64,000 bases of DNA from Actinomyces sp. Lineage in GTDB: Bacteria > Actinomycetota > Actinomycetes > Actinomycetales > Actinomycetaceae. Under the pieces are notes generated by a model, which was not told the DNA's origin, made no database searches, and saw only the letters and a list, made by a program, of their open reading frames with translations. The stretch covers positions 72,548-136,547 of the forward strand of contig NZ_JAUMUL010000001.1 in NCBI RefSeq assembly GCF_030530635.1, given 5' to 3'. Positions 6,397-35,833 of the stretch are shown one piece after another (position 1 is the first letter of the stretch; the number at the start of each line of letters is the position of its first letter). A program made the position numbers and the translations under genes.

Positions 6397-7944
6397 GTGG
6401 CGCGTCCCGACTACGTCCGGAGAGTTATGAATCCCACACTCCAGCCGACTGCCGGCTTCTTCGACGGTCCCGCCGCCGCGCTCGAGACCATCTCCGACCA
6501 CCTCTACGGCGAGCTGTTGGCCTGGCTGCTGATCGCGGCCGGCCTGTACTTCACCTGGTGCACGCGCGCTCTGCAGCTGCGTCTGTTCACCCAGATGTTG
6601 CGGGCCATCACCTCCTCCCGCGGAGATGTCGGGGAGGGCATGTCCTCCTTCCAGGCCTTCACTGTGGGGCTGGCCTCCCGTGTGGGTACTGGCAACATCG
6701 TCGGCGTCGCCATCGCCATCACGATGGGCGGTCCGGGAGCCGTGTTCTGGATGTGGATCGTGGCCCTGGTGGGGATGGCCACCGGCTTCGTGGAGTCCAC
6801 GCTCGCTCAGTTGTTCAAGGTGGCTCATCCCGACGGCACCTTCCGCGGCGGCCCCGCCTACTACATCCATCAGGGTCTGGGATCTAAGACGGTGGCCAAC
6901 ATATTCGCGGTCGTGATCACCTTCGTATTCGGCTTCGCCTACGAGGCCACGCAGGCCAACGCCATCTCCAACGTGTTCAAGGGCACCTTTGGTATTGAGC
7001 CCTGGATCACCGCCGTCGTGCTGGTACTCATCACCACGCCGGTGGTCTTCAAGGGCATAAGGCGGGTAGCCGCGATCACCGAGTGGCTGGCTCCGCTGAT
7101 GGCTCTGATCTATGTGGTGATCGCCCTGGTCATACTCGTGCTCAATATCGGTGCCATTCCCGCCGCCCTGGCCTCCGTGGTCAAGGGGGCCTTCGGCGTG
7201 GACCAGGCCCTGTGGGGGTTGGGCGGGGGCTTCCTGGCCGCGGCTCTCAACGGCATCAAGCGGGGCCTGTTCTCCAATGAGGCGGGCGAGGGCTCCGTCC
7301 CCAACGCCGCCGCCACCGCCACCGTGCACCACCCGGTGCAGCAGGGCTTCATTCAGTCCATGGGCGTATTCGTGGACACGATTGTGGTGTGCACCGCGAC
7401 CGCCCTGATCATCCTGCTGTCCGGTGTCTACGACCCCGCCACCGCCGACATCGACGCCGCCGGCACCCTGACCGTTACCTCCGTCAGCGCCGTGCTCGGA
7501 CCCTGGGCAAAGTACCTGATGGCGGTTGTGGTGTTCGTGTTCGCCTACTCCTCCTTGCTGGGCAATTACGCCTATGCGGAGGTGAATATGGACTTCCTGC
7601 GCGGCATGGGCCGCAGCCACTACGGCGTGCGCGCCATGATCGTGGTTGCTGCCGCACTAGGCGCGGTGGCGTCCCTGTCCTTCGTGTGGAACCTGTCCGA
7701 CGTCGCCATGGGAGTCATGGCGATCATCAACATCGTCTCGGTGGTGCTCCTGGGGCGGTGGGCCTTCGGCGCCCTGCGCGACTGGGAGCAACAGCAGCGT
7801 GAGATCAACGCGGGGCTGCGGGACAAGATCTACTTCGTGTCAACCGGTAACCCCTATCTACCGGCGGAATTGCCGGGCGAGATCTGGACCGAGGAGGCCG
7901 AGGCGCGCCGTGAGTCCCAGCCGACCGAACTCAGGGCCGACTGA
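6397..7944 (+). CDS. Alanine/glycine:cation symporter (AGCS), paralog 4.
   Basis: Has the same motifs (MSSFQAF, GPGAVFWMWIVAL, RGLFSNEAG). A 177-bp spacer with an AT-rich stretch precedes it. An alternative start lies at MNPTLQ (6427). Confidence 0.85.
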   Translation: MARPDYVRRVMNPTLQPTAGFFDGPAAALETISDHLYGELLAWLLIAAGLYFTWCTRALQLRLFTQMLRAITSSRGDVGEGMSSFQAFTVGLASRVGTGNIVGVAIAITMGGPGAVFWMWIVALVGMATGFVESTLAQLFKVAHPDGTFRGGPAYYIHQGLGSKTVANIFAVVITFVFGFAYEATQANAISNVFKGTFGIEPWITAVVLVLITTPVVFKGIRRVAAITEWLAPLMALIYVVIALVILVLNIGAIPAALASVVKGAFGVDQALWGLGGGFLAAALNGIKRGLFSNEAGEGSVPNAAATATVHHPVQQGFIQSMGVFVDTIVVCTATALIILLSGVYDPATADIDAAGTLTVTSVSAVLGPWAKYLMAVVVFVFAYSSLLGNYAYAEVNMDFLRGMGRSHYGVRAMIVVAAALGAVASLSFVWNLSDVAMGVMAIINIVSVVLLGRWAFGALRDWEQQQREINAGLRDKIYFVSTGNPYLPAELPGEIWTEEAEARRESQPTELRAD

Positions 7945-8000
7945 TATTCGACGCCGCCCGAGCCTGCGCCCGGCAGCGGGCGATCATCTAGGGTCGGGTC

Positions 8001-8828
8001 ATGAAGATCGCACGCTTCTCCACCGGAGACGAACTCCGATACGGCATTGTCGACGGCCTTCCCGTTGCTGAGCCCACGCCCTCCGGAGAATCCCCCGGAC
8101 GCCTGCTGGTGCTCAGAGGCGACCCGCTGTACACCTCCCCCGAGGCAACGGGGGAGGTGATACCGCTGGACGAGGTGCGTCTCCTCTCCCCGGTGATTCC
8201 CCGGTCCAAGGTGGTGGGTATAGGTAAGAACTACGCCGCTCACGCCGCGGAAATGGGCGCAGTCGCTCCCGCCGAACCCATCGTCTTCCTCAAGCCCAAC
8301 ACGGCGGTCATTGGCCCCGACACTCCGATCGTGCTGCCCGACTGGTCCGGAGAAGTGCATTACGAGGCCGAACTCGCCGTCGTCATCAAGTCCGTGGTCA
8401 AGGACGCCTCTCCGCAGCAGGCGGCTGCCGCCGTCCTCGGCTATACGGTTGCCAATGACGTGTCTGCGCGTGATTGCCAACGCGCCGACGAGACCTGGAC
8501 GCGGGCCAAGGCCTTCGACACCTCCTGCCCACTCGGCCCCTGGATTGAGATCCCTGAGACGTCCGCGGATCACTCGGACTTCGATCCCGCCGACGCCGTG
8601 GTACGCGCCCGCGTCGACGGGCGGGTGGTGCAGGAGGGGACCACCGCAGACATGATCCGCCCCGTGCCCGAACTGATCGCCTATGTCTCACGTATATTCA
8701 CCTTGCTCCCCGGCGACGTTGTACTGACCGGCACGCCCGCCGGCGTCGGTGAAATCCGCGCCGGCCAGCGCGTCGAGGTCGAGGTAGAGGGCATCGGCTC
8801 CTTCGGAAACCCGGTTGTGGGCAGCTGA
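8001..8828 (+). CDS. Fumarylacetoacetate hydrolase (FAH) family protein (2-keto-4-pentenoate hydratase/HpcE-like).
   Basis: 275 aa with FAH-fold motifs VVGIGKNYAAHAAEMG and HYEAELAVVI. Confidence 0.75.
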   Translation: MKIARFSTGDELRYGIVDGLPVAEPTPSGESPGRLLVLRGDPLYTSPEATGEVIPLDEVRLLSPVIPRSKVVGIGKNYAAHAAEMGAVAPAEPIVFLKPNTAVIGPDTPIVLPDWSGEVHYEAELAVVIKSVVKDASPQQAAAAVLGYTVANDVSARDCQRADETWTRAKAFDTSCPLGPWIEIPETSADHSDFDPADAVVRARVDGRVVQEGTTADMIRPVPELIAYVSRIFTLLPGDVVLTGTPAGVGEIRAGQRVEVEVEGIGSFGNPVVGS

Positions 8829-26364: not shown

Positions 26365-27864
26365 ATGAGACGTCCCGTCGCCATCATCCTCACCTCCGCC
26401 GGACTTGCCGCAGGTGCCGCGATCGCCCTGACCGCTCGACCGAGGCGCCTGCATGTGCCCCCGGTTCCTCTGGGCGATAGGCGTCACCGTCCGCCCCGTG
26501 TGCTCATTGCCGGCGGCGGTTACGTCGGCTTCATCGCAGCTCGGGAGCTGCGTAAACGGCTGAATACCGATGAGGTGGAGATCGCCGTCGTCGATCCGCG
26601 CCCGTACATGACCTACCAACCCTTCTTGCCTGAGGTCGCCGCCGGTTCCATCCAGCCGCGGCATGTGGTCGCCTCCCACCGTCGCGGCCTGGACGGCATC
26701 ACCATCCTGACCGGTTCAGTCACAGACATCGACCACGCACACCGCAGCGTCACCGTCACGCCCCCCATACCCGAGTCCACCAGAATCACCCCCGAGCCCT
26801 ATCCACTGACCTATGACCACCTAGTGCTCGCCCTGGGTGCCGAGGCACGTACCCTGCCCATTCCCGGTCTGGCCGAGCAGGCCCTGGGCTTCAAGCAGGT
26901 GGAGGAGGCGCTCGCTCTGCGCAACCGAGTGCTCTCCCGCATCGAAGAGGCCGCCTCCACCTGGGATCACGACCGGCGTCGGCGCCTGCTCACGTTCGTA
27001 TTCGTGGGCGGCGGTTTCGCCGGCGTGGAGGCGATCGCCGAGTTGGAGGACATGGCCCGCGCCGCTGTGGCCAAGATCCCAAGCATCGAACAGAGCGATG
27101 TGCACTTCGTGCTGGTAGAAGGCACCCGCCGCATCCTGCCCGAACTCACCGAGGAGCTGTCCGGCTACGGCCTGCAGCAACTGCGGGAGCGCGACATCGA
27201 CGTGCGGCTATCCACCTTCTTGAACTCCTGCGTCGACGGACACGTGGTCCTGTCCGACGGCACCGAGTTCGACGCCGACACCATTGTGTGGACCGCAGGG
27301 GTAAAGGCGGCCCCGGTGCTGGCCGACTCGGACCTGCCCATTGAGGGGCGCGGCCGCGTCACCGCCCTGCCCACATTGCAGGTGGCCCGTGAGGGCGTGG
27401 TCGTGGATGGTGCCTGGGCCGCAGGCGACTGTGCGGCCGTGCCCGACCTGGCCGGCGACGATCCGGAGGCCACCTGTGCACCCACCGCTCAGCACGCGGT
27501 CCGTCAGGCCAAGGTCTTGGCCGACAACCTGGTGAAGACTCTGACGGCCGATGCCGACGGGCAGCCGCAGCTGTCCGTTTACCGGCACGAGAACCTCGGC
27601 ACCGTCGCCTCTCTCGGCATCGGCAAGGGGGTGGCCCGCATCATGGGGCACAACCTGCGTGGCATTCCGGCCTGGACCGCTCACCGCGGCTATCACGTCT
27701 ATGCCATGCCCACTCTCAACCGGAAGGTGCGGATCATGATGGACTGGTTCGCGGCCGTCGTCTTCCGCCGCGACTTGGCCAGCTTCGGATCGGTGGCCGC
27801 ACCCGGTGCCGCCTTCGCCGCTGCCGCGGAGCACGACGCCCGCCTGGCCCAGCGGCGCGGCTGA
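26365..27864 (+). CDS. ndh: Type II NADH:quinone oxidoreductase (NDH-2).
   Basis: Two dinucleotide-binding motifs ([17 protein letters not shown] and [15 protein letters not shown]), 499 aa. Confidence 0.85.
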
Positions 27865-27967
27865 GTCCTCCACTATCCCAGGAGAGGAGATCCGTGGCGC
27901 CGCGACGGCTCTGTGGCTGCCAACACGGACGTCGTTCAGAGCGCTGATCAGGCCTACACTTCGCGGG

Positions 27968-29647
27968 ATGACTACGATCGAGACGATTGGCAGCACCGCC
28001 TCCTCCAACAAACGGTCATGGGGCGCGGACCCTCCCCGCACCTACCACGTGCGCACGCTCGGCTGCCAGATGAATGTTCACGACTCCGAGCATATGGCGG
28101 GCCTGCTGGAGCAGGCGGGATACCGCCGCGCCGAGGACGTTCCCGAGGTGGCGGCGCGTGCTACCGCGGCCGGTGACGGCGGTGCGGACGTCGTCATCAT
28201 CAATACCTGCTCCGTGCGGGAGAACGCCGCCACCCGCCTGTTCGGCAACCTCGGTCAGCTGGCCGCAGTCAAGCGGGAGCGCCCCGGCATGCAGATCGCC
28301 GTGGCCGGCTGCCTGGCCCAGCAGATGGGGGAGGGGATCGTCGAGAAGGCCCCGTGGGTCGACGTCGTCTTCGGCACCCACAACATCGATGTGCTACCCG
28401 CACTGCTGGACCGCGCCCGCCACAACGCCGAGGCCGCCGTCGAGATCGAGGAGTCCCTGAAGGTCTTCCCCTCCACTCTGCCGACCCGGCGTGAGTCGCC
28501 CTACGCCGCCTGGGTGTCCATCGCGGTGGGCTGCAACAACACCTGTACCTTCTGCATCGTCCCCTCCCTGCGCGGCAAGCAGCGCGACCGGCGCCCCGGT
28601 GACATCCTGGCCGAGGTCCAGGCCGTCGCCGCCCAGGGGGCCATCGAGGTCACCCTGCTGGGGCAGAACGTCAACTCCTACGGTGTCGGCTTCGGTGAGC
28701 GTGGCGCCTTCGCCGGCCTGCTGCGCGCGGCCGGGAGCGTGGAGGGCATTGAGCGGGTGCGCTTCACCAGCCCGCACCCGGCGGCCTTCACCGACGACGT
28801 CATCGACGCCATGGCCGACACGCCCGCGGTCATGCCGAGCCTGCACATGCCGCTGCAATCCGGATCGGACCGGGTCCTGCGGGCCATGCGCCGCTCCTAC
28901 CGAACCCGCCGGTTCCTCGACATCCTCGAGCGCGTGCGCGACCGGATGCCGCAGGCCGCCATCACCACCGACCTGATCGTCGGCTTCCCCGGCGAGACCG
29001 AGGCGGATTTCCAGGCGACCCTCGACGTCGTGGAGCAGGCCCGCTTCGCCTCCGCCTTCACCTTCGAGTTCTCCCCACGCCCGGGCACCCCGGCCGCGGG
29101 CATGCCCGACCAGGTGCCGATCGAGGTGGTCAAGGAGCGCTACGCCCGTCTGGACGAACTGGTGCGGCGCATCACCCGGGAGGAGAACGAGCGTCAGGAG
29201 GGGCGCATCGTCGAGATCCTCGTGGCCGAGGGCGAGGGCCGCCGCGACCGGGCCACGGCACGCATCTCCGGGCGCGCCGCCGACAACCGCCTGGTGCACG
29301 CCGCCCTGCCGGTCGGGCTGGCGGCAGACGACTACGCCGCCGGCGCCCCGCGGCCCGGAGACATGCTCATCGTCCGCGTCACGCACGGCGCCCCCCACAA
29401 CCTCATTGCCGATTCCGCCCGCTGCGGCGTCGCGGCCGATGGGGCGGCCGTGGATGGTGCGGGCCGAGGTGCCGGGGACCGCATCTGGCTGGACGGCGGC
29501 CCCGCCCTGTTCGAGGTGCGGCGCACCCGGGCCGGGGATGCCTGGGAGCGCCGTCGCCGTGAATCCCACGCCGAGCCCGAGCCGGATGCGGCGCCCGTGG
29601 CCATTGGTATGCCGACGCTCCGTCCCGGGGCGCATGGCATGAGGTAG
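27968..29647 (+). CDS. miaB: tRNA-i6A37 methylthiotransferase MiaB, with a roughly 80-100-aa Ala/Gly/Arg-rich C-terminal extension.
   Basis: MTTase N domain ([18 protein letters not shown]), a radical-SAM CxxxCxxC ([10 protein letters not shown]) and a TRAM domain. Start taken at ATG 27968; the track ORF from 27806 overlaps ndh. Confidence 0.9.
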
Positions 29648-29796
29648 GTCGTCTGCACCGCTTCGCGATCACGAATAGTGATGCTTTGAGGGCGCGCATC
29701 GTGAGCGACTCGGAGTCGCTGGGTGGACCCGTGGGAGTTGACAGTCAGGCGGTGTACTGACACACTGAGTGTGTTGGTACACTGAGTGAGAGGTCG

Positions 29797-30744
29797 GTGA
29801 TGTCGACATTCGTCGTTTGGGTGCTCGTGGCCGCCGTCGTATTCCAGCTGCCCGCCGCGAGCGCACTCCGGGACGGCTCCGGCCGGGATCAACACACCGA
29901 GGAGTACCTCGCCGGACAGGGGCTCGTGCTGCCGCCCGACCTGCGGCAGCAGCTGCTCTCGCGCCTGCATCTGCGGTCGCATACCGCCGTCGCCTGGGGC
30001 TGGGGCGGCTGGGCAGCGGGTGTCGCGATGGCCGCGGCGGTCCAGGCGTTCGGCGCCGTCCACCTCGTACCGCTCATCACGCTCCTGGCCACTGCTCTTG
30101 GGCATGCGACCGGCGCGATCATCGGCCTGATGCGGGAGGTGGTCGATCCTCTCCCAGCCGCACCCCGGGTGGCCCGCGCCCGGGCCACGACGTGGAGGGA
30201 TTACTGCGACCGCTGGGACCGTCGTGCGGCGCTCCTTGCGGTCCTGTCCACCGCTTTCGCCTGCATCGCCGCCCTGGGCGTGTGGGTGCTGACCCCGCTG
30301 CGCCCGGACGGCGGGTGGCTGGTGCTCGCGGCAGTCATCGGCGCGGGGGCGTGTGTGGGAGTCGCGGATATGCTCTGCCTGCGGCTCGCAGCGGTCCTGG
30401 CCGATCGTCCCCAGCGGGCACACGGCGACCTCGAGCTCGCCTGGGATGATGCGCTGCGCTCGGGCGCCGTCAGGGGAGTGCTCGACGTGGTTGTTGGCAC
30501 CGGGCTCCTGGCGACCCTGATCATTCTCGGGACCTCTGCCACGTGGCTGATCGCCCCGGAGGTGCGTGCCCGGGGCATGGAGCTGACCGCGCTCCTGGGG
30601 CTGGCCGCCCTTCTTGTGGGGCTCGCCTGCTGGGCGGCGATTCTCGTGCCGTGGCAGCGCGGACGGCGGGTGCGCAACCCCTCCCTGGGGCTGTGGCGCG
30701 ACCATGACCTCTCGGGGCCTGCGCAGGAGGGGCGGGCGTGCTGA
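29797..30744 (+). CDS. Integral membrane protein, hypothetical, with 6 or more TM segments.
   Basis: Hydrophobic segments throughout. The stop overlaps the start of the GntR gene (ATGCTGA). Confidence 0.5.
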   Translation: MMSTFVVWVLVAAVVFQLPAASALRDGSGRDQHTEEYLAGQGLVLPPDLRQQLLSRLHLRSHTAVAWGWGGWAAGVAMAAAVQAFGAVHLVPLITLLATALGHATGAIIGLMREVVDPLPAAPRVARARATTWRDYCDRWDRRAALLAVLSTAFACIAALGVWVLTPLRPDGGWLVLAAVIGAGACVGVADMLCLRLAAVLADRPQRAHGDLELAWDDALRSGAVRGVLDVVVGTGLLATLIILGTSATWLIAPEVRARGMELTALLGLAALLVGLACWAAILVPWQRGRRVRNPSLGLWRDHDLSGPAQEGRAC

Positions 30745-31121
30745 CGGTCGACGCCTCCGGGCGGACACCCCCCTTCGAGCAGATCCGGGACCAGTTGAGG
30801 GCGCAGATCGTCGCCGGGGATCTCGACGTCGGGACGAGGCTGCCCTCGGTACGTCGGCTCGCAGCGGACCTCGGGGTCGCTCCGGGGACGGTTGCCCGGG
30901 CCTACCGAGAACTCGAACAGGCCGGCCTGGTCCGCACCAACCGGCGCACCGGCACGATCGTCGCGCCGCCCGCGGCCGTGGGCGGGCGCAGTGCGGCCGA
31001 ACTCGCGGCGTACTGCGTCGCCGGAATGCGGGGGCTCGCGCTCACCGACGAGCAGATCGTGGCGGCCGTGCAGGACTGCCTGCGGCGTGATCCTCGACCG
31101 CCGACCGATTTCGGTACGTAA
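30738..31121 (+). CDS. GntR-family transcriptional regulator (winged-HTH domain only, 127 aa).
   Basis: LPSVRRLAADLGVAPGTVARAYRELEQAGLV is the canonical GntR HTH. Confidence 0.75.
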   Translation: MLTVDASGRTPPFEQIRDQLRAQIVAGDLDVGTRLPSVRRLAADLGVAPGTVARAYRELEQAGLVRTNRRTGTIVAPPAAVGGRSAAELAAYCVAGMRGLALTDEQIVAAVQDCLRRDPRPPTDFGT

Positions 31122-31210
31122 GTTCAACCGATCTCGGCGGGGGGCGGTGAATAGTTCGGCAGGCAGGGTGCGGAAGGCGTGGGGGACGGCCGCCGAGCCG
31201 CCGGTTGTGG
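31100..31210 (-). pseudogene. Fossil 3' end of an apbE paralog, about 110 bp, a degenerate duplicate of 32011-32120.
   Basis: The minus-strand translation GSAAVPHAFRTLPAELFTAPRRDR aligns in frame with the C-terminus of the intact ApbE (GSAAVSRTWHDLPAELFTSSSPRRDR*), with a 6-nt in-frame deletion and loss of the stop codon. Confidence 0.5.
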
Positions 31211-31280
31211 CCGTCGCGTGGCGCCACCAAGTGAAGACACGGCGCCACCACAGCCCTATATGTCAATAGTCCGGTAACTT

Positions 31281-31856
31281 TCAAGCACTGGCAGTCAGAG
31301 CGGCTGCTCCGAATGACACGCTGAAGTCTTCGCACCAGAGGACCACGGACTTCCAGGTCGTCAGGTCGATATCCGAGGGCAAGTCGTACAGCTGGTTGCC
31401 TTTGTTCCCCTTTAGAGTAGAGACGTCGAGGTGATCGTGATCGGCTGCCGTGTGCCATCCGCCCGTACCCTCGACCACGGGTCCTGCGCTTAACCACACG
31501 TGGACATCTGGTCCGTTAGAAGTCATCAGGTCGGCCAACGCAAGTTGGTGGCTCCCGTCCGGCAACCTGTAGATGGTCGCCGTGCCGCTCGTCTCGTGCT
31601 CGTGGGATACGAAGGAGCCGGTAGCCACGACGGTGGGGGCGGCGGGCTGGGACTGCGTTTGCAGACCCGGGTCGGGAGCGTCCGATTGCGGTGTATCTGG
31701 TGCTGTAGCGGCTGCTGGCGGTAGCGCGTCGTTGACGGTCTTGTCAATGAATAGGAGCCAGGGTTTGAAAATGGCTAGAGCGGCGATGAGCAGGATCGCG
31801 GTTATGCCAGCCAGAGGCAGGATGACACGCTTGCTGTGCGGGAAGGCGAGCGACAC
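31281..31856 (-). CDS. DM13-domain protein (predicted electron-transfer domain), N-terminally membrane-anchored.
   Basis: N-terminal TM segment (ILPLAGITAILLIAALAIF), then TGSFVSHEHETSGTATIYRLPDGSHQLALADLMTSNGPDVHVWLS, which is consistent with the DM13 beta-fold consensus. Confidence 0.55.
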   Translation of the reverse strand: MSLAFPHSKRVILPLAGITAILLIAALAIFKPWLLFIDKTVNDALPPAAATAPDTPQSDAPDPGLQTQSQPAAPTVVATGSFVSHEHETSGTATIYRLPDGSHQLALADLMTSNGPDVHVWLSAGPVVEGTGGWHTAADHDHLDVSTLKGNKGNQLYDLPSDIDLTTWKSVVLWCEDFSVSFGAAALTASA

Positions 31857-32040
31857 AAAGGTCTCCTTTCAATGTTTCCTCAATGATAGATATACCTTAT
31901 GTGGCGAGTGCAGCCTTGTCTAATCGCTGTGAATGAACGCTTGGTGGTTGCGCATCGCTGTTAGCGCCGTCGCGTAAGCCGGATGGACGCCCGGCTACTG
32001 ATCTCGGCAGAGGACTGCCACCGATCTCGGTACGTAACGT

Positions 32041-33090
32041 CTACCGATCTCGGCGGGGGGAGGAGGAGGTGAAGAGTTCCGCGGGCAGGTCGTGCCAGGT
32101 GCGGGAGACGGCGGCGGAGCCGTCGGCGCGCAGCAGGGCGAAGTCATAGTCGAAGCCCGCAGCCGCCAGGGCCGCGGGATCGCTCACGAACAGCGCCGTG
32201 GCCAGTCCGTCCGCCTCGGCGCAGCTGCCCGCAACCGCCCAGGTCGCGATGACGGCGTTCATCCCCTGTATCGGCAGGCCCGTGTGCGCATCCAGGATGT
32301 GGTGCAGTCCCGGTCCCCAGGTGCGGCGGGAGACGCCCGAGGCACACACCGCCCCATTGGCAAGCTCGACGACGCCGACCACCTCGCCTTCACCCCCGCT
32401 CGCCGCCCCGGGCCGTTCCAGGCCGATGCGCACCGGCTCGGAGCAGTGCACCAGCAGGTCGCCGTCGGCGTCAATCAAGTACTCGTCGCGGCCATCCTCC
32501 CGCAGCCAGGCGGCCAGCAGGTCGGCCAGGAAACCCTTCCCGGCGGCGCCGACGTCGATCAGCACCGGCTCGTGCAGCACTAGCCTGTCGCCATCGTGGC
32601 GGGCGGTGTCCGCCCAGGTGGGCCGCCCATGGTCGGCCCCGAGCCTGTGGACGGCGCCGTCGCGCACCACGAAGCTGTATTCGGCGTCATAGCCGAGCGC
32701 TACCAGATCTGCGCCGGCAAGAGGGTCGATGCGTCCGTCGGTGGCGCCGTGCAGCCGGTCGTACAGGTCGAGCAGCGCCGCAGATCCGGGTGGCAGCTCA
32801 AGTACGACCTCGCCGTGCCGTCCCCGGACGATTCGCCCGCCGCCCGGCCCGTGACTGACCCGCACGGCAGCCGCACGGCGCATCAACGACCCGGTGCGGA
32901 AGCGCGACCAGACATCTTCGAAGGCGTCCACGCGCGCCGTGACCTTTTCGCGCAGCGTGTCGGGCAGGGGAGAGCGGGTATAGACCACCCACCGGCAGCC
33001 GGTGGCCTCGAAGTGCCAGGCCTGCGTGAGCCCGCCGGGGGCCTCCAGTGCGCACATATCCCCTCCCTGACCTGGATCAATGCAGACCAT
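32041..33090 (-). CDS. apbE: FAD:protein FMN transferase (ApbE family).
   Basis: ApbE-like segments IDVGAAGKGFLADL and GLHHILDAHTGLP, 349 aa. No signal peptide is visible at this start. Confidence 0.7.
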   Translation of the reverse strand: MVCIDPGQGGDMCALEAPGGLTQAWHFEATGCRWVVYTRSPLPDTLREKVTARVDAFEDVWSRFRTGSLMRRAAAVRVSHGPGGGRIVRGRHGEVVLELPPGSAALLDLYDRLHGATDGRIDPLAGADLVALGYDAEYSFVVRDGAVHRLGADHGRPTWADTARHDGDRLVLHEPVLIDVGAAGKGFLADLLAAWLREDGRDEYLIDADGDLLVHCSEPVRIGLERPGAASGGEGEVVGVVELANGAVCASGVSRRTWGPGLHHILDAHTGLPIQGMNAVIATWAVAGSCAEADGLATALFVSDPAALAAAGFDYDFALLRADGSAAVSRTWHDLPAELFTSSSPRRDR

Positions 33091-33235
33091 CCGATCATGA
33101 CTGCCCGTCAGGTCTCGATGCGACCGGTTTTGACGTGACCAAATAAGTGAGCCTACTCTTTTGGATACAGGTCTGCCTTACCTATTCAGAGGGAGCGCCG
33201 GCCGACGCCTACAGCACGTGAAGGAACCCGTCCGC

Positions 33236-34975
33236 ATGTCCCACGCCTCGGTACAGTCCCGCTCCATGCCCCAGCCGGTGCGCGCCGGCGTCGCGCTCGG
33301 AGCGGTATTACTGCTGCTGATGGGAGTGGTCTCCGGGCCCTGGTCGACGGCCCGGGCGGCCGAGTCCGACACGGACTATGACTCCTGGAGCGCCGTGGCG
33401 CAGGCCATCGCCGCGCAGCTCACCGCCGCGTCCGACTCCTACGCCTCGGGCGACACCTCCGGAGCCGCCGCCGCCTTCCAGCGCGCCTACAACTCCGGGT
33501 ACGTCGCCTCCAACCTTCAGGTCGTCACCACCGACAATCTCGGCGCCGACGTCGTCACCCAGCAACGGCAGGCCTTCAACGACCTGCGTCGGGCCGCCTA
33601 CTCCACAGGCAACGCACAGACCATCAGCTCCGGCATCACGGCGCTATCCGACTCCCTTACCGATACCACCGCCCAACTCGATGATCTGGCCGACCTGGCC
33701 GACCCACGTAGCTACGCCGCCAATCAGGCCGCCACCATCGCCACCGAGCGGGCCGAGATCCAGGCCAACAAGACCCGGGTCAATGAGGGACGCGGCGAGC
33801 GCACCTGGACTCAGGTCGCCGCCGAGATGAACGAGCTGATCGACTCCGGCGTGGACAAGGCCGCCTCCGGAGACCGCGAGGGCGGTGCTGCCGACGTCAA
33901 CAGTGCCTACTACGGCTACTACGAGAAGCTCGGCTTTGAGAAGACTGTCATGGCCGCCATCTCCGGCGACCGTGTCTCCGAGGTGGAGAACCAGTTCAAG
34001 ATCGTGCGCAAAGCCATGATTCGAGGCGACGACAGCAGCACGGTCAGCGCCGAGGCCGAGACCCTCAAGAACTACCTGACCGAGGACGCCGCCGCCCTCG
34101 ACGGCGGCGCGGCCGACAACGTCAGCCCCGTCAAGGCCTTCCTGACCGGCTCCTTCGGGCAGGCCTTCCTGATTCTGCTGCGTGAGGGCCTGGAGGCGAT
34201 CCTGGTGGTCGCCGCCGTCATCGCCTACCTGCTCAAGGCCGGTATGCGGGACCGTGTCAAGTACATCTACGCTGGGGTCGCCCTGGGATTGGCGGGCTCA
34301 GGGCTGGTGGCGCTGGCCTTCACCTGGCTGTACGACTCGGCCTCCGCCCATCAGGAGGTCCTTGAGGGCATCGTGGCACTGATAGCCATGGTGATGTTGC
34401 TGTTCACGTCCAACTGGATGCTGTCGAAGTCCTCGGTGGCGTCATGGAACCGCTACATCAAGGACAAGACCGAGGCCTCCATCTCCAACGGCGGCTTCTG
34501 GGCGCTGGCCTCGCTGTCATTCCTGGCGGTCTTCCGTGAGGGCGCCGAGACGGTCATGTTCTACGAGGCGCTGTTCACCATGGACCCCGGTGGCTCGGCC
34601 GGCATATGGCAGGGCTTCGCCGCCGGTGCGGTCGTGCTCGTGGTCATCTTCCTGCTCATCCGCTTCACCAGCGTGAGGATTCCGCTGCGGCCCTTCTTCG
34701 CCATCACGAGTTTCCTCATGGCCGTCCTCGTCGTGATTTTCGCCGGCGGCGGCGCCCACGCCCTCATTGAGGGCGACATCATCCCGGCGACTTACGTCCA
34801 GGGATGGCCCACGTACGACTACCTGGGCCTGTACCCCTACCGGGAGACTCTCCTGTTCCAGGCCTTCATGGCCGTGGTCGTCATCGTCCTGTCCATCGCC
34901 TCCGTTGTGCGCCACCGCCGTGCGGACGCCGTCCGGGCGGCCATGGATGCGGACGCCGAGGCCACGGCCCAATAG
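33236..34975 (+). CDS. FTR1-family iron permease with a large N-terminal extracytoplasmic domain (FetM-like).
   Basis: Signal peptide, a roughly 330-aa soluble domain and a C-terminal 7-TM region with REGLEA (RExxE iron-binding motif). RBS GAAGGAA upstream. Confidence 0.75.
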   Translation: MSHASVQSRSMPQPVRAGVALGAVLLLLMGVVSGPWSTARAAESDTDYDSWSAVAQAIAAQLTAASDSYASGDTSGAAAAFQRAYNSGYVASNLQVVTTDNLGADVVTQQRQAFNDLRRAAYSTGNAQTISSGITALSDSLTDTTAQLDDLADLADPRSYAANQAATIATERAEIQANKTRVNEGRGERTWTQVAAEMNELIDSGVDKAASGDREGGAADVNSAYYGYYEKLGFEKTVMAAISGDRVSEVENQFKIVRKAMIRGDDSSTVSAEAETLKNYLTEDAAALDGGAADNVSPVKAFLTGSFGQAFLILLREGLEAILVVAAVIAYLLKAGMRDRVKYIYAGVALGLAGSGLVALAFTWLYDSASAHQEVLEGIVALIAMVMLLFTSNWMLSKSSVASWNRYIKDKTEASISNGGFWALASLSFLAVFREGAETVMFYEALFTMDPGGSAGIWQGFAAGAVVLVVIFLLIRFTSVRIPLRPFFAITSFLMAVLVVIFAGGGAHALIEGDIIPATYVQGWPTYDYLGLYPYRETLLFQAFMAVVVIVLSIASVVRHRRADAVRAAMDADAEATAQ

Positions 34976-35026
34976 TCCTGGGCGCACCGAATAATCAGCA
35001 CCAACAACCAACGAAGGAAACACCCC

Positions 35027-35656
35027 ATGCGATCCCTCAAGCTCATCAGCGCCACGGGCGCACTCGTCCTGGCCGGGACCCTCGGCCTGGTCGCCTGCTC
35101 TTCCAATAACGCCGACGACGCCTCGTCCGGCGCAGCCACGCAGGCCGCTGCGGACTCCGGTAACGAGGCCGGATTCGAGGAGTTCAGTGTCAACGAATCC
35201 CAGGAGGATCAGGAGGCCGAGGGGCAGATCAGCGTCAACTTGGTCTACTTCCAGCCGGTCGACATGGAGCCCGCAGGGGCCGCCGGCTTGGCGGCTTCGA
35301 ACGCCAGCTTCCACATGGAGGCCGACATCAGCGCCTTGGCCGACAACACCCTCGGTTACGGTGCCGGTGACTTCGTGCCCGGGCTGACCGTGGACTATTC
35401 CATTGCCCGCGCGGACGGATCCGGCGAGCCGGTGGAGGGCACCTTCATGCAGATGAACGCCTCCGACGGCCCCCACTACGGGGCCAACATCGCTCTGAAT
35501 GAGGCCGGCCAGTACAAGGTCACCATCACCATCCACAGCCCGGAGGAGAACGGCTGGGTGCTGCACACCGACCCCGAGACCGGTGTTGAGGGTCGCTTCT
35601 GGAACGAGCCCATCGAACTCACCTGGGACTGGGACTACACCCCCATGGAGTGGTGA
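35027..35656 (+). CDS. P19/FetP-family periplasmic iron-transport lipoprotein.
   Basis: Lipobox (LGLVACSS), 209 aa, His/Met/Glu-rich beta protein. Its position immediately after the FTR1 permease is the conserved FetMP/cFtr1-P19 arrangement. Confidence 0.65.
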   Translation: MRSLKLISATGALVLAGTLGLVACSSNNADDASSGAATQAAADSGNEAGFEEFSVNESQEDQEAEGQISVNLVYFQPVDMEPAGAAGLAASNASFHMEADISALADNTLGYGAGDFVPGLTVDYSIARADGSGEPVEGTFMQMNASDGPHYGANIALNEAGQYKVTITIHSPEENGWVLHTDPETGVEGRFWNEPIELTWDWDYTPMEW

Positions 35657-35833
35657 GCCGCCGGTGCCGCCGCGCGCCCCGGTAGGGGGAGAGGCCGGCG
35701 TCGCCACCGGTTGTCGCCGTATCCCCGACTTCCGCCACTTGGCGGCTCGGCCGGGGATACGGCGACACCGATAGTGTAGGAACAGGAATCATCGCCCCGG
35801 TCACGGGGAGTCACCGACAGGAGCGCACACGGA

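Follow-up and report, generated by a model that had tools for sequence, protein, structure and literature searches.

Direct repeats of ~100 bp that reconstitute the 3′ end of a target gene are typical of actinomycete integrative elements. In E. coli lacZ assays, a single crossover of circular molecules left the inserted DNA flanked by duplicated stretches of the homologous locus, 109–950 bp in length (PMC3240628). Homology-facilitated illegitimate recombination, a process reported for Acinetobacter, S. pneumoniae, and P. stutzeri and proposed for the effector arrays of the Vibrio type VI secretion system and for Rhs loci, has also been held responsible for orphaned 3′ gene ends (PMC5361080). 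Here, we analyzed a 64,000-nucleotide stretch of the genome of an Actinomyces sp. (contig NZ_JAUMUL010000001.1; the whole stretch is called the window below), in which a gene for a DM13-domain protein lies between two copies of the 3′ end of apbE, each attached to an array of short repeats. The copy joined to the apbE body (copy B) completes a functional gene, and the other (copy A), which adjoins the gene of a GntR-family regulator, is a remnant. The locus is a recombination scar of a known kind, real but ordinary, and lies outside every mobile-element and RNA family tested.

Each of these systems resembles the locus in part. As in Campbell-type integration (PMC3240628), the insert has a direct copy of a partial gene end on each side, one completing the gene and the other orphaned, and the ~110–130 bp repeated here falls within the range of 109–950 bp. 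In contrast to those assays, the event in the window was natural, apparently old, and took place in Actinomyces, the copies are now 80% identical, and no circular intermediate or donor allele was observed. With homology-facilitated illegitimate recombination, the locus shares a variable spot beside a conserved gene, a displaced resident 3′ end left as a remnant, and a new cassette, but it holds one remnant rather than a string, its genes are housekeeping or regulatory rather than toxin–immunity genes, and no microhomology joint was identified. The attL/attR sites of actinomycete elements and prophages likewise consist of ~100-bp direct repeats that include the target 3′ end, leave the target intact, and enclose an insert of lower G+C content (GC). 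However, the insert in the window is only 0.8 kb long and has no recombinase or element genes, and the repeated array is host sequence that is found in insert-free genomes as well.

When copy A was queried with blastn against the full 64-kb window, copy B was the one strong match (E = 3.3e-19), the runner-up having E = 0.02. In the alignment of copy A (31096–31205) with copy B (32012–32127), 83 of the 104 aligned bases are equal (79.8%), and there is one in-frame 6-bp indel. The apbE stop codon TAG (32041–32043) corresponds to TTG in copy A (31125–31127). On the minus strand, copy A is translated as GGSAAVPHAFRTLPAELFTAPRRDRL..., i.e., ..GGSAAVPHAFRTLPAELFTAPRRDR-L.., and the real ApbE end in copy B as GSAAVSRTWHDLPAELFTSSSPRRDR followed by the stop. 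The original prediction, made from the letters of the window alone, had described ~80% identity between 31100–31210 and 32011–32120, an in-frame indel, a lost stop codon, and a GntR stop inside the remnant, and had proposed comparing the window with itself. All of this holds: its two translations were reproduced exactly, and the stop codon of the GntR gene, TAA, is at 31119–31121.

Eight homologous loci were recovered: a Logan assembly with the ApbE closest to that of the window (L034, 78%), A. succiniciruminis AM4 (L002), Actinomyces sp. 594 (L036), A. ruminis (L033), A. qiguomingii (L037), A. glycerinitolerans (L015), and two more distant relatives, the Logan assembly SRR13247031 (L050) and A. 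wuliandei (L052). DM13 is present at this locus in none of these eight genomes. In L034, AM4, and sp. 594, apbE and the GntR gene are convergent, with exactly 26 bp between their stop codons, with the GntR stop inside the array as in the window, and without DM13, so that comparison with related genomes, the check suggested alongside the prediction, yields an intact GntR/apbE junction. A. ruminis and A. qiguomingii lack the GntR gene together with the membrane-protein gene that precedes it, and their apbE converges straight on the radical S-adenosylmethionine (SAM) gene; in A. glycerinitolerans, ~950 bp of uncharacterised sequence replaces the membrane/GntR pair.

In the relatives except A. qiguomingii, both window copies match one and the same stretch, made up of the last ~85 bp of apbE and the repeats that follow; the blast output for A. 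qiguomingii held no separate match to copy A. The blastn alignments of the left and right flanks overlap by 133 bp in L034 and by 99 bp in AM4 and leave 31206–31996 unmatched; therefore, two copies bracket a 791-bp insert. The same path, from the array of copy B through DM13 and the remnant to GntR, is repeated in an independent Logan assembly (L001, run SRR24915806). With the junction uninterrupted in three relatives, the earlier proposal that a past duplication or recombination had set DM13, or the membrane/GntR pair, beside the iron locus of apbE is supported.

To describe the decay of copy A, the last 26 codons were aligned in eight sequences, namely copy A, copy B, and six relatives. Copy A carries 13 private substitutions in 78 aligned bases, 12 of which are at sites invariant in the six relatives and copy B, and its differences from copy B are distributed over codon positions 1/2/3 as 5/5/6. 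The differences between copy B and the relatives are few and mostly in the third position (1/2/3 vs. L034; 1/1/4 vs. A. ruminis), and copy B has changes of its own, including a 6-bp insertion (Ser-Ser). Copy A has lost the stop codon and also lacks a start codon, because the listed open reading frame of that frame starts at the TTG of 31125–31127, leaving the remnant upstream of it without one. Its C-terminus before decay, LPAELFTAPRRDR, is that of the intact A. ruminis ApbE. At alignment column 128, both copies have C and all six relatives have T, which suggests a common or very closely related source or, alternatively, later gene conversion between the copies.

Judged by these substitutions, copy A is a true fossil in its apbE-derived part, which evolves without coding constraint. 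Of copy A, only the array has been kept, with the GntR stop codon still inside it. The original prediction of a decayed remnant rather than a shared structural element is correct, therefore, for the apbE-derived part, with its even 5/5/6 distribution and 12 private changes, but not for the array third, which is conserved in seven genomes. The prediction had also spoken of a second apbE 3′ end; the tail was indeed duplicated, but a complete second apbE is not required, as the duplication comprises only ~85 bp of apbE coding sequence plus the array.

The GC between the two copies is 0.52–0.63 compared with ~0.72 outside. The DM13 gene has a GC of 0.615 and a third-codon-position GC (GC3) of 0.72, compared with GC3 values of 0.82–0.89 in all neighbour genes, and its nearest homologues reach no more than 65% identity and are found in unrelated gene contexts. 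By its GC3, its absence in the relatives, and the contexts of its homologues elsewhere, the inserted DNA differs in origin from its flanks. The insert is single-copy within the window (blastn); DM13 is its sole gene, Pfam revealing in the 791 bp neither a transposase/integrase or excisionase gene nor any other gene of an element, and no terminal inverted repeats were found. A plasmid or phage origin was rejected, as 31206–31996 had no match in the plasmid and phage collections. A transposon or miniature inverted-repeat transposable element with a target-site duplication was rejected as well, given the lack of terminal inverted repeats, the length of the duplication (~110–130 bp), and the single copy in the window. 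In A. bovis and A. gaoshouyii, DM13 genes stand alone in unrelated contexts and lack flanking repeats, which argues against a generally mobile DM13 cassette. An exact look-up of the window GntR and DM13 proteins led only to one further assembly, from the same organism. The DM13 gene is preceded by a ribosome-binding site, AAAGGAG, at 31863–31869, a consensus promoter scan of 31857–31996 found no match, and the N-terminal hydrophobic segment of the protein suggests a membrane anchor. The hairpin predicted 3′ of its stop codon (31206–31256) is probably its terminator.

An exact 10-bp direct repeat, GCCGTCGCGT, was noticed near both ends of the insert (31210–31219 and 31966–31975). Its core, GCCGTCG (31210, 31966), also occurs in apbE at 32117–32123, a position equivalent to the end of the fossil, and no clean joint could be reconstructed from it. 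The repeat could be a microhomology used in the rearrangement, or it could be due to chance; four exact 10-mers recur in the 836-bp stretch.

The sequence on either side of the insert is a mosaic. Window positions 28040–35700 were compared with L034, AM4, sp. 594, A. ruminis, and A. qiguomingii. Relative to L034, the DNA identity is ~0.84 in the oxidoreductase gene further upstream, 0.97–1.00 in the core of the radical-SAM gene (28040–29100; four-fold-site divergence of 0.109 for the whole gene), 0.91 in the membrane gene and GntR (four-fold 0.165–0.193), 0.91–0.95 over most of the 3′ part of apbE (32041–32733; four-fold 0.136), and 0.67–0.78 in the 5′ part of apbE (32734–33057; four-fold 0.39). 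The membrane gene and GntR have an identity of 0.96 with AM4, and their four-fold divergence from it is 0.06–0.10, compared with 0.31 for apbE. The 3′ part of apbE is closest to L034 (0.136), and the ancestry thus changes at the junction. P19, in the iron-uptake locus, has a four-fold divergence of 0.26–0.31 between the window and all relatives and of 0.18–0.24 among the relatives; L034 and AM4 are themselves 95–99% identical over FTR1 and P19. This pattern of identities implies frequent homologous exchange among these Actinomyces species.

The fossil differs from the AM4 apbE end at 17 of 78 sites, whereas the adjacent AM4-like genes differ at 22 of 303 four-fold sites (binomial P = 4e-5). 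Being more diverged from AM4 than the genes next to it, the fossil therefore pre-dates the present AM4-like tract. The event looks old because the private branch of the fossil amounts to ~0.17 substitutions per site, comparable to the baseline synonymous distance of the window lineage to other species. These divergences are read most simply as an old event after which the flanks underwent repeated homologous exchange. The ancestry change at the junction was rejected as proof of import, since exchange tracts from DM13-less relatives must end at the insertion anyway.

How did the DM13 gene come to lie between two apbE tails? We consider it most probable (~0.6) that recombination with a partner molecule left DM13 between a duplicated apbE tail and array. 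In the ancestral state, which three relatives still have, GntR and apbE are convergent and parted only by a 2.5-unit array of 23-bp repeats that supplies the last codons of both. Two DNA molecules, each with an apbE end and an array, would then have recombined, one having DM13 behind the array and the other having the membrane/GntR pair. This could have occurred by a single (Campbell-type) crossover in the ~130 bp of homology carried by a circularised fragment, or through homologous recombination on one side and an illegitimate join on the other; either route would retain the homologous stretch in both its copies. The copy in continuity with the apbE body has stayed in frame and functional, and the copy beside GntR has decayed. 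Later, the flanks would have been overwritten by exchange with relatives, with the exchange tracts stopping at the insertion. DM13 seems more likely to be the newcomer because of its atypical composition, its absence at the locus in all relatives, and the adjacency of GntR and apbE in the nearest relatives.

Several points weigh against partner-molecule recombination. Since both routes need an allele with DM13 directly downstream of apbE and its array and without the fossil, it counts against them that, in a thin sampling of the group, no such allele was found in the protein database, the contigs of DM13 homologues, the related loci, or a metagenome motif scan. Before decay, copies A and B were almost identical, which duplication in place explains equally well, and no clear microhomology is readable at the 31205/31206 joint. 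Nor does the flank mosaic, which later exchange could have produced, give a date for the event.

Could the duplication instead have been made in place? A foreign 0.8-kb DM13 fragment would then have been captured in a single event, at a staggered break or at the join point of a small tandem duplication of apbE tail and array, with the copies identical at birth and with no partner allele. The architecture is exactly that expected, S – insert – S (S standing for apbE tail and array), and the pre-decay copies differ by private changes only and share the derived C that is absent from the six relatives. That C, however, is 7 bp from the array, in an 18-bp block identical in both copies, where gene conversion could have created it; moreover, the insert has neither terminal inverted repeats nor a transposase, and we know of no bacterial insertion mechanism that yields a target duplication of ~110–130 bp. 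Duplication in place is rather unlikely. A somewhat more credible course, although still an unlikely one, is that the GntR/membrane block is the newcomer beside a resident DM13. In this case, a donor fragment carrying radical-SAM, membrane gene, GntR, array, and the last 85 bp of apbE would have been anchored in the radical-SAM gene and joined illegitimately at its far end just downstream of DM13, and the fossil would be the end at which the donor fragment broke. Such a geometry is canonical for homology-facilitated illegitimate recombination; the radical-SAM gene, with 92–100% DNA identity between species, would be a good anchor; and the block is accessory, being absent in A. ruminis, A. qiguomingii, and A. 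glycerinitolerans, and is closest to AM4 in the window while its neighbours are closest to L034. On the other hand, the divergence of the fossil (17/78 against 22/303; P = 4e-5) indicates that the present AM4-like tract arrived without it, the composition of DM13 marks this gene as the foreign piece, and no relative has DM13 at the locus.

The direct repeats of ~100 bp with a target 3′ end, the lower GC of the insert, and the dyad symmetry of the repeat units (CCGA-TC-TCGG) would also fit the attL and attR sites of a degraded integrative element or prophage that had targeted the apbE 3′ end with a replacement copy, DM13 being its last cargo. We regard this as highly improbable, given that no integrase, excisionase, or other element gene is left in the 791 bp, that the flanking genes are syntenic with those of the relatives, that the array belongs to the host even where there is no insert, and that neither array nor insert matched the phage collection, viral contigs, or plasmid collection beyond one chance-level plasmid match to the array (E 0.5). 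Least probable of all, to the point of being hardly credible, is a shared functional element, such as a terminator or protein-binding site, kept at both places and not a gene remnant. The conservation of the array across species and the hairpin that its adjacent units are predicted to form on both strands speak for such an element, but the similarity runs ~80 bp past the array into sequence that codes for apbE in every relative, and that stretch has the 12 private changes at otherwise invariant sites, evenly spread over codon positions; the fold z-scores are weak (+0.7 to −2.7), and Rfam gave no match. This explanation is already contradicted for 31138–31205 and could apply only to the array.

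The scar is a natural example of a single accessory gene set between two convergent genes with neither damaged, the event being recorded by an orphaned gene tail. It also marks the interval between apbE and the radical-SAM gene as a small variable spot in one Actinomyces group, with heavy homologous exchange on both sides. For annotation, 31125–31205 should not be called a gene, and the array should be seen as supplying the last codons of two genes. No new kind of system is revealed.

Copies of the CCGATCTCGG-type motif occur at 31105, 31128, 31998, 32021, and 32044, all on the + strand. The numbers and sites of the repeats (two and three copies) and the TACGTA in their spacers agree with what had been predicted, but the spacing is exactly 23 bp within each cluster instead of 21–24 bp. 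A search for the 10-mer in the whole window with at most one mismatch gave 17 matches compared with 11.9 expected, and only the two clusters stand out. Tandem units of 22–23 bp, one to three in number, are found at the apbE 3′ end in seven genomes of the group; the unit in the apbE sense is CCGAGATCGGTAGAAGTTACGTA, and the array starts within the last apbE codons. The first unit encodes the ApbE end (..PRRDR and stop), and in the GntR-bearing genomes, the last unit encodes the GntR end (..PTDLGT and stop). In the window, the last codons of GntR (PTDFGT and stop) are encoded by the first unit of array copy A, and the last unit of array copy B codes for the ApbE C-terminus (..RRDR and stop). Tandem Repeats Finder called a 23-bp × 2.6 array with a 94% match in L034; the window arrays, being too short or too degenerate, were not called.

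Array copy A is 83–89% conserved relative to copy B and the relatives, compared with 75–77% for the coding remnant. More distant Actinomyces ApbE proteins end in ..FTA and a stop, without the array-encoded extension, and A. wuliandei has a 22-bp spacer and no array. By their distribution and conservation, the CCGATCTCGG repeats are older than the insertion event and are a shared element, not gene debris. Between adjacent units, a hairpin of 6 + 7 bp with a 2 × 2 internal loop is predicted on either strand. The array region has no U-tract or T run, a consensus scan of it found nothing, and neither did Rfam over 30800–32300 with E up to 1. Our best guess, weakly supported as it is, would be a hairpin that ends or stabilises both convergent transcripts.

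Other roles of the array were considered. Conserved repeats, ACTCAGTGTAC..ACACTCAGTGTGTCAGTACAC, are present upstream of the membrane/GntR operon (window ~29700–29790; L034 5780–5830; AM4 8365–8400; sp. 594 8385–8430) and are probably the operator of the YtrA-like GntR regulator. The array is unlikely to be the GntR operator, given these separate conserved ACTCAGTGTAC/GTACAC repeats in the operon promoter. In the window and in 9.7–13 kb from each of six relatives, the apbE 3′ end is the sole site of repeat clusters, and a scan with CCGAGRTCGGTRGANNTTACG gave nine matches in JGI metagenomes and three in IMG/VR, all single copies in unrelated, lower-GC sequence. A dispersed repeat resembling repetitive extragenic palindromes was rejected, as these metagenome and viral matches are due to chance and the clusters are confined to the apbE 3′ end in the scanned loci. 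A GntR 3′ remnant inside copy B was rejected too: the shared 9-mer AGGACTGCC is at chance level, with 117 of 500 shuffles reaching the same score.

It has some appeal to view the array as an active recombination or capture site, i.e., a small site-specific or hairpin-targeted cassette exchange without a recombinase nearby, because three different inserts border or enter it: the membrane/GntR pair, DM13, and the ~950-bp non-coding piece of A. glycerinitolerans. A repeat pair in opposite orientation in L050 may be cited as well. We nevertheless think such an activity very doubtful; because the array fills nearly all of the tolerated space between the convergent genes, any surviving insertion must touch it.

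The A. glycerinitolerans stretch (7025–7975, GC 0.66) lies within the repeat array, with a repeat-like copy, ACTTCGTGCCGAGGTCCTTC, at its far end by the radical-SAM stop. Several internal inverted repeats can be seen in it by eye, and it has no Pfam match and no credible Rfam match. It is not a decayed DM13 gene, since tblastn and blastn show no similarity. In L050 (5030–5230), the spacer between apbE and the radical-SAM gene is 210 bp long and has a 13-bp tandem repeat, GAGACCGGGAGAT, twice right behind the apbE stop. The array-like pair CGATCTCGAGGTGCGTTAAGTCCCGATCTCGG lies by the radical-SAM stop in the orientation opposite to that of the array in the group of the window; the ApbE of this assembly is 64% identical. 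The L050 repeats are possibly a small element, invertible or mobile, or else mark both ends of an old insertion.

The features of the locus are listed below, with the genes assigned by Pfam.

Table. Features of the apbE/GntR junction and neighbouring genes (window coordinates).
Feature	Coordinates	Strand	Basis
Pyridine-nucleotide disulphide oxidoreductase	26365–27864	+	Pfam
MiaB-like radical-SAM enzyme	27806–29647	+	Pfam
Membrane protein, without family match	29797–30744	+	Pfam
Short GntR-family (YtrA-like) regulator	30738–31121	+	Pfam PF00392, E 1e-16
Array copy A, two 23-bp repeat units (ACCGATTTCGGTACGTAAGTTCA, ACCGATCTCGG)	31104–31137		Motif positions, alignment
apbE fossil: last 26 codons and former stop codon	31125–31205	-	Alignment, substitution counts
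Insert, 791 bp, with the DM13 gene and its own up- and downstream flanks	31206–31996		blastn vs. relatives
Predicted hairpin 3′ of the DM13 stop, built on GGCGCCACCA ×2	31206–31256	-	-34.2 kcal/mol, z -1.5
DM13-domain protein gene, 191 aa	31281–31856	-	Pfam PF10517, E 1.5e-28
AT-richer spacer upstream of DM13, GC 0.52	31857–31996	-	Composition
Array copy B, three units at 31997 (degenerate), 32020, and 32043	31997–32053		Motif positions, alignment
Functional apbE 3′ end matching the fossil; private 6-bp (Ser-Ser) insertion	32041–32127	-	Alignment
apbE (FAD:protein FMN transferase), 338 aa as annotated	32041–33057	-	Pfam PF02424
FTR1, P19, and FtrD-like iron-uptake genes	from 33161	+	Pfam

The apbE gene is the first gene of an Ftr-type iron-uptake locus (FTR1, P19, FtrD), and the protein P0121 is 100% identical to the ApbE of the window. 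Of the 604 residues encoded by the FTR1 permease gene (33161–34975), the N-terminal ~330 are without a Pfam match, and the FTR1 domain does not begin until residue 335; in A. ruminis, the annotation of this region shows two genes (197 aa and 387 aa).

The last ~10 codons of the radical-SAM gene (window 29616–29647 and equivalents) differ between the genomes with and without the membrane/GntR pair; therefore, the boundary of the membrane/GntR indel also cuts into the 3′ end of a gene. Further upstream, the oxidoreductase gene directly adjoins the radical-SAM gene in the window and in L034, whereas a four-gene amino-acid ATP-binding cassette (ABC) transporter cluster separates the two in A. ruminis and A. 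qiguomingii. The same cluster adjoins the radical-SAM gene in Actinomyces sp. 594, and it is another indel in the neighbourhood of apbE and the radical-SAM gene.

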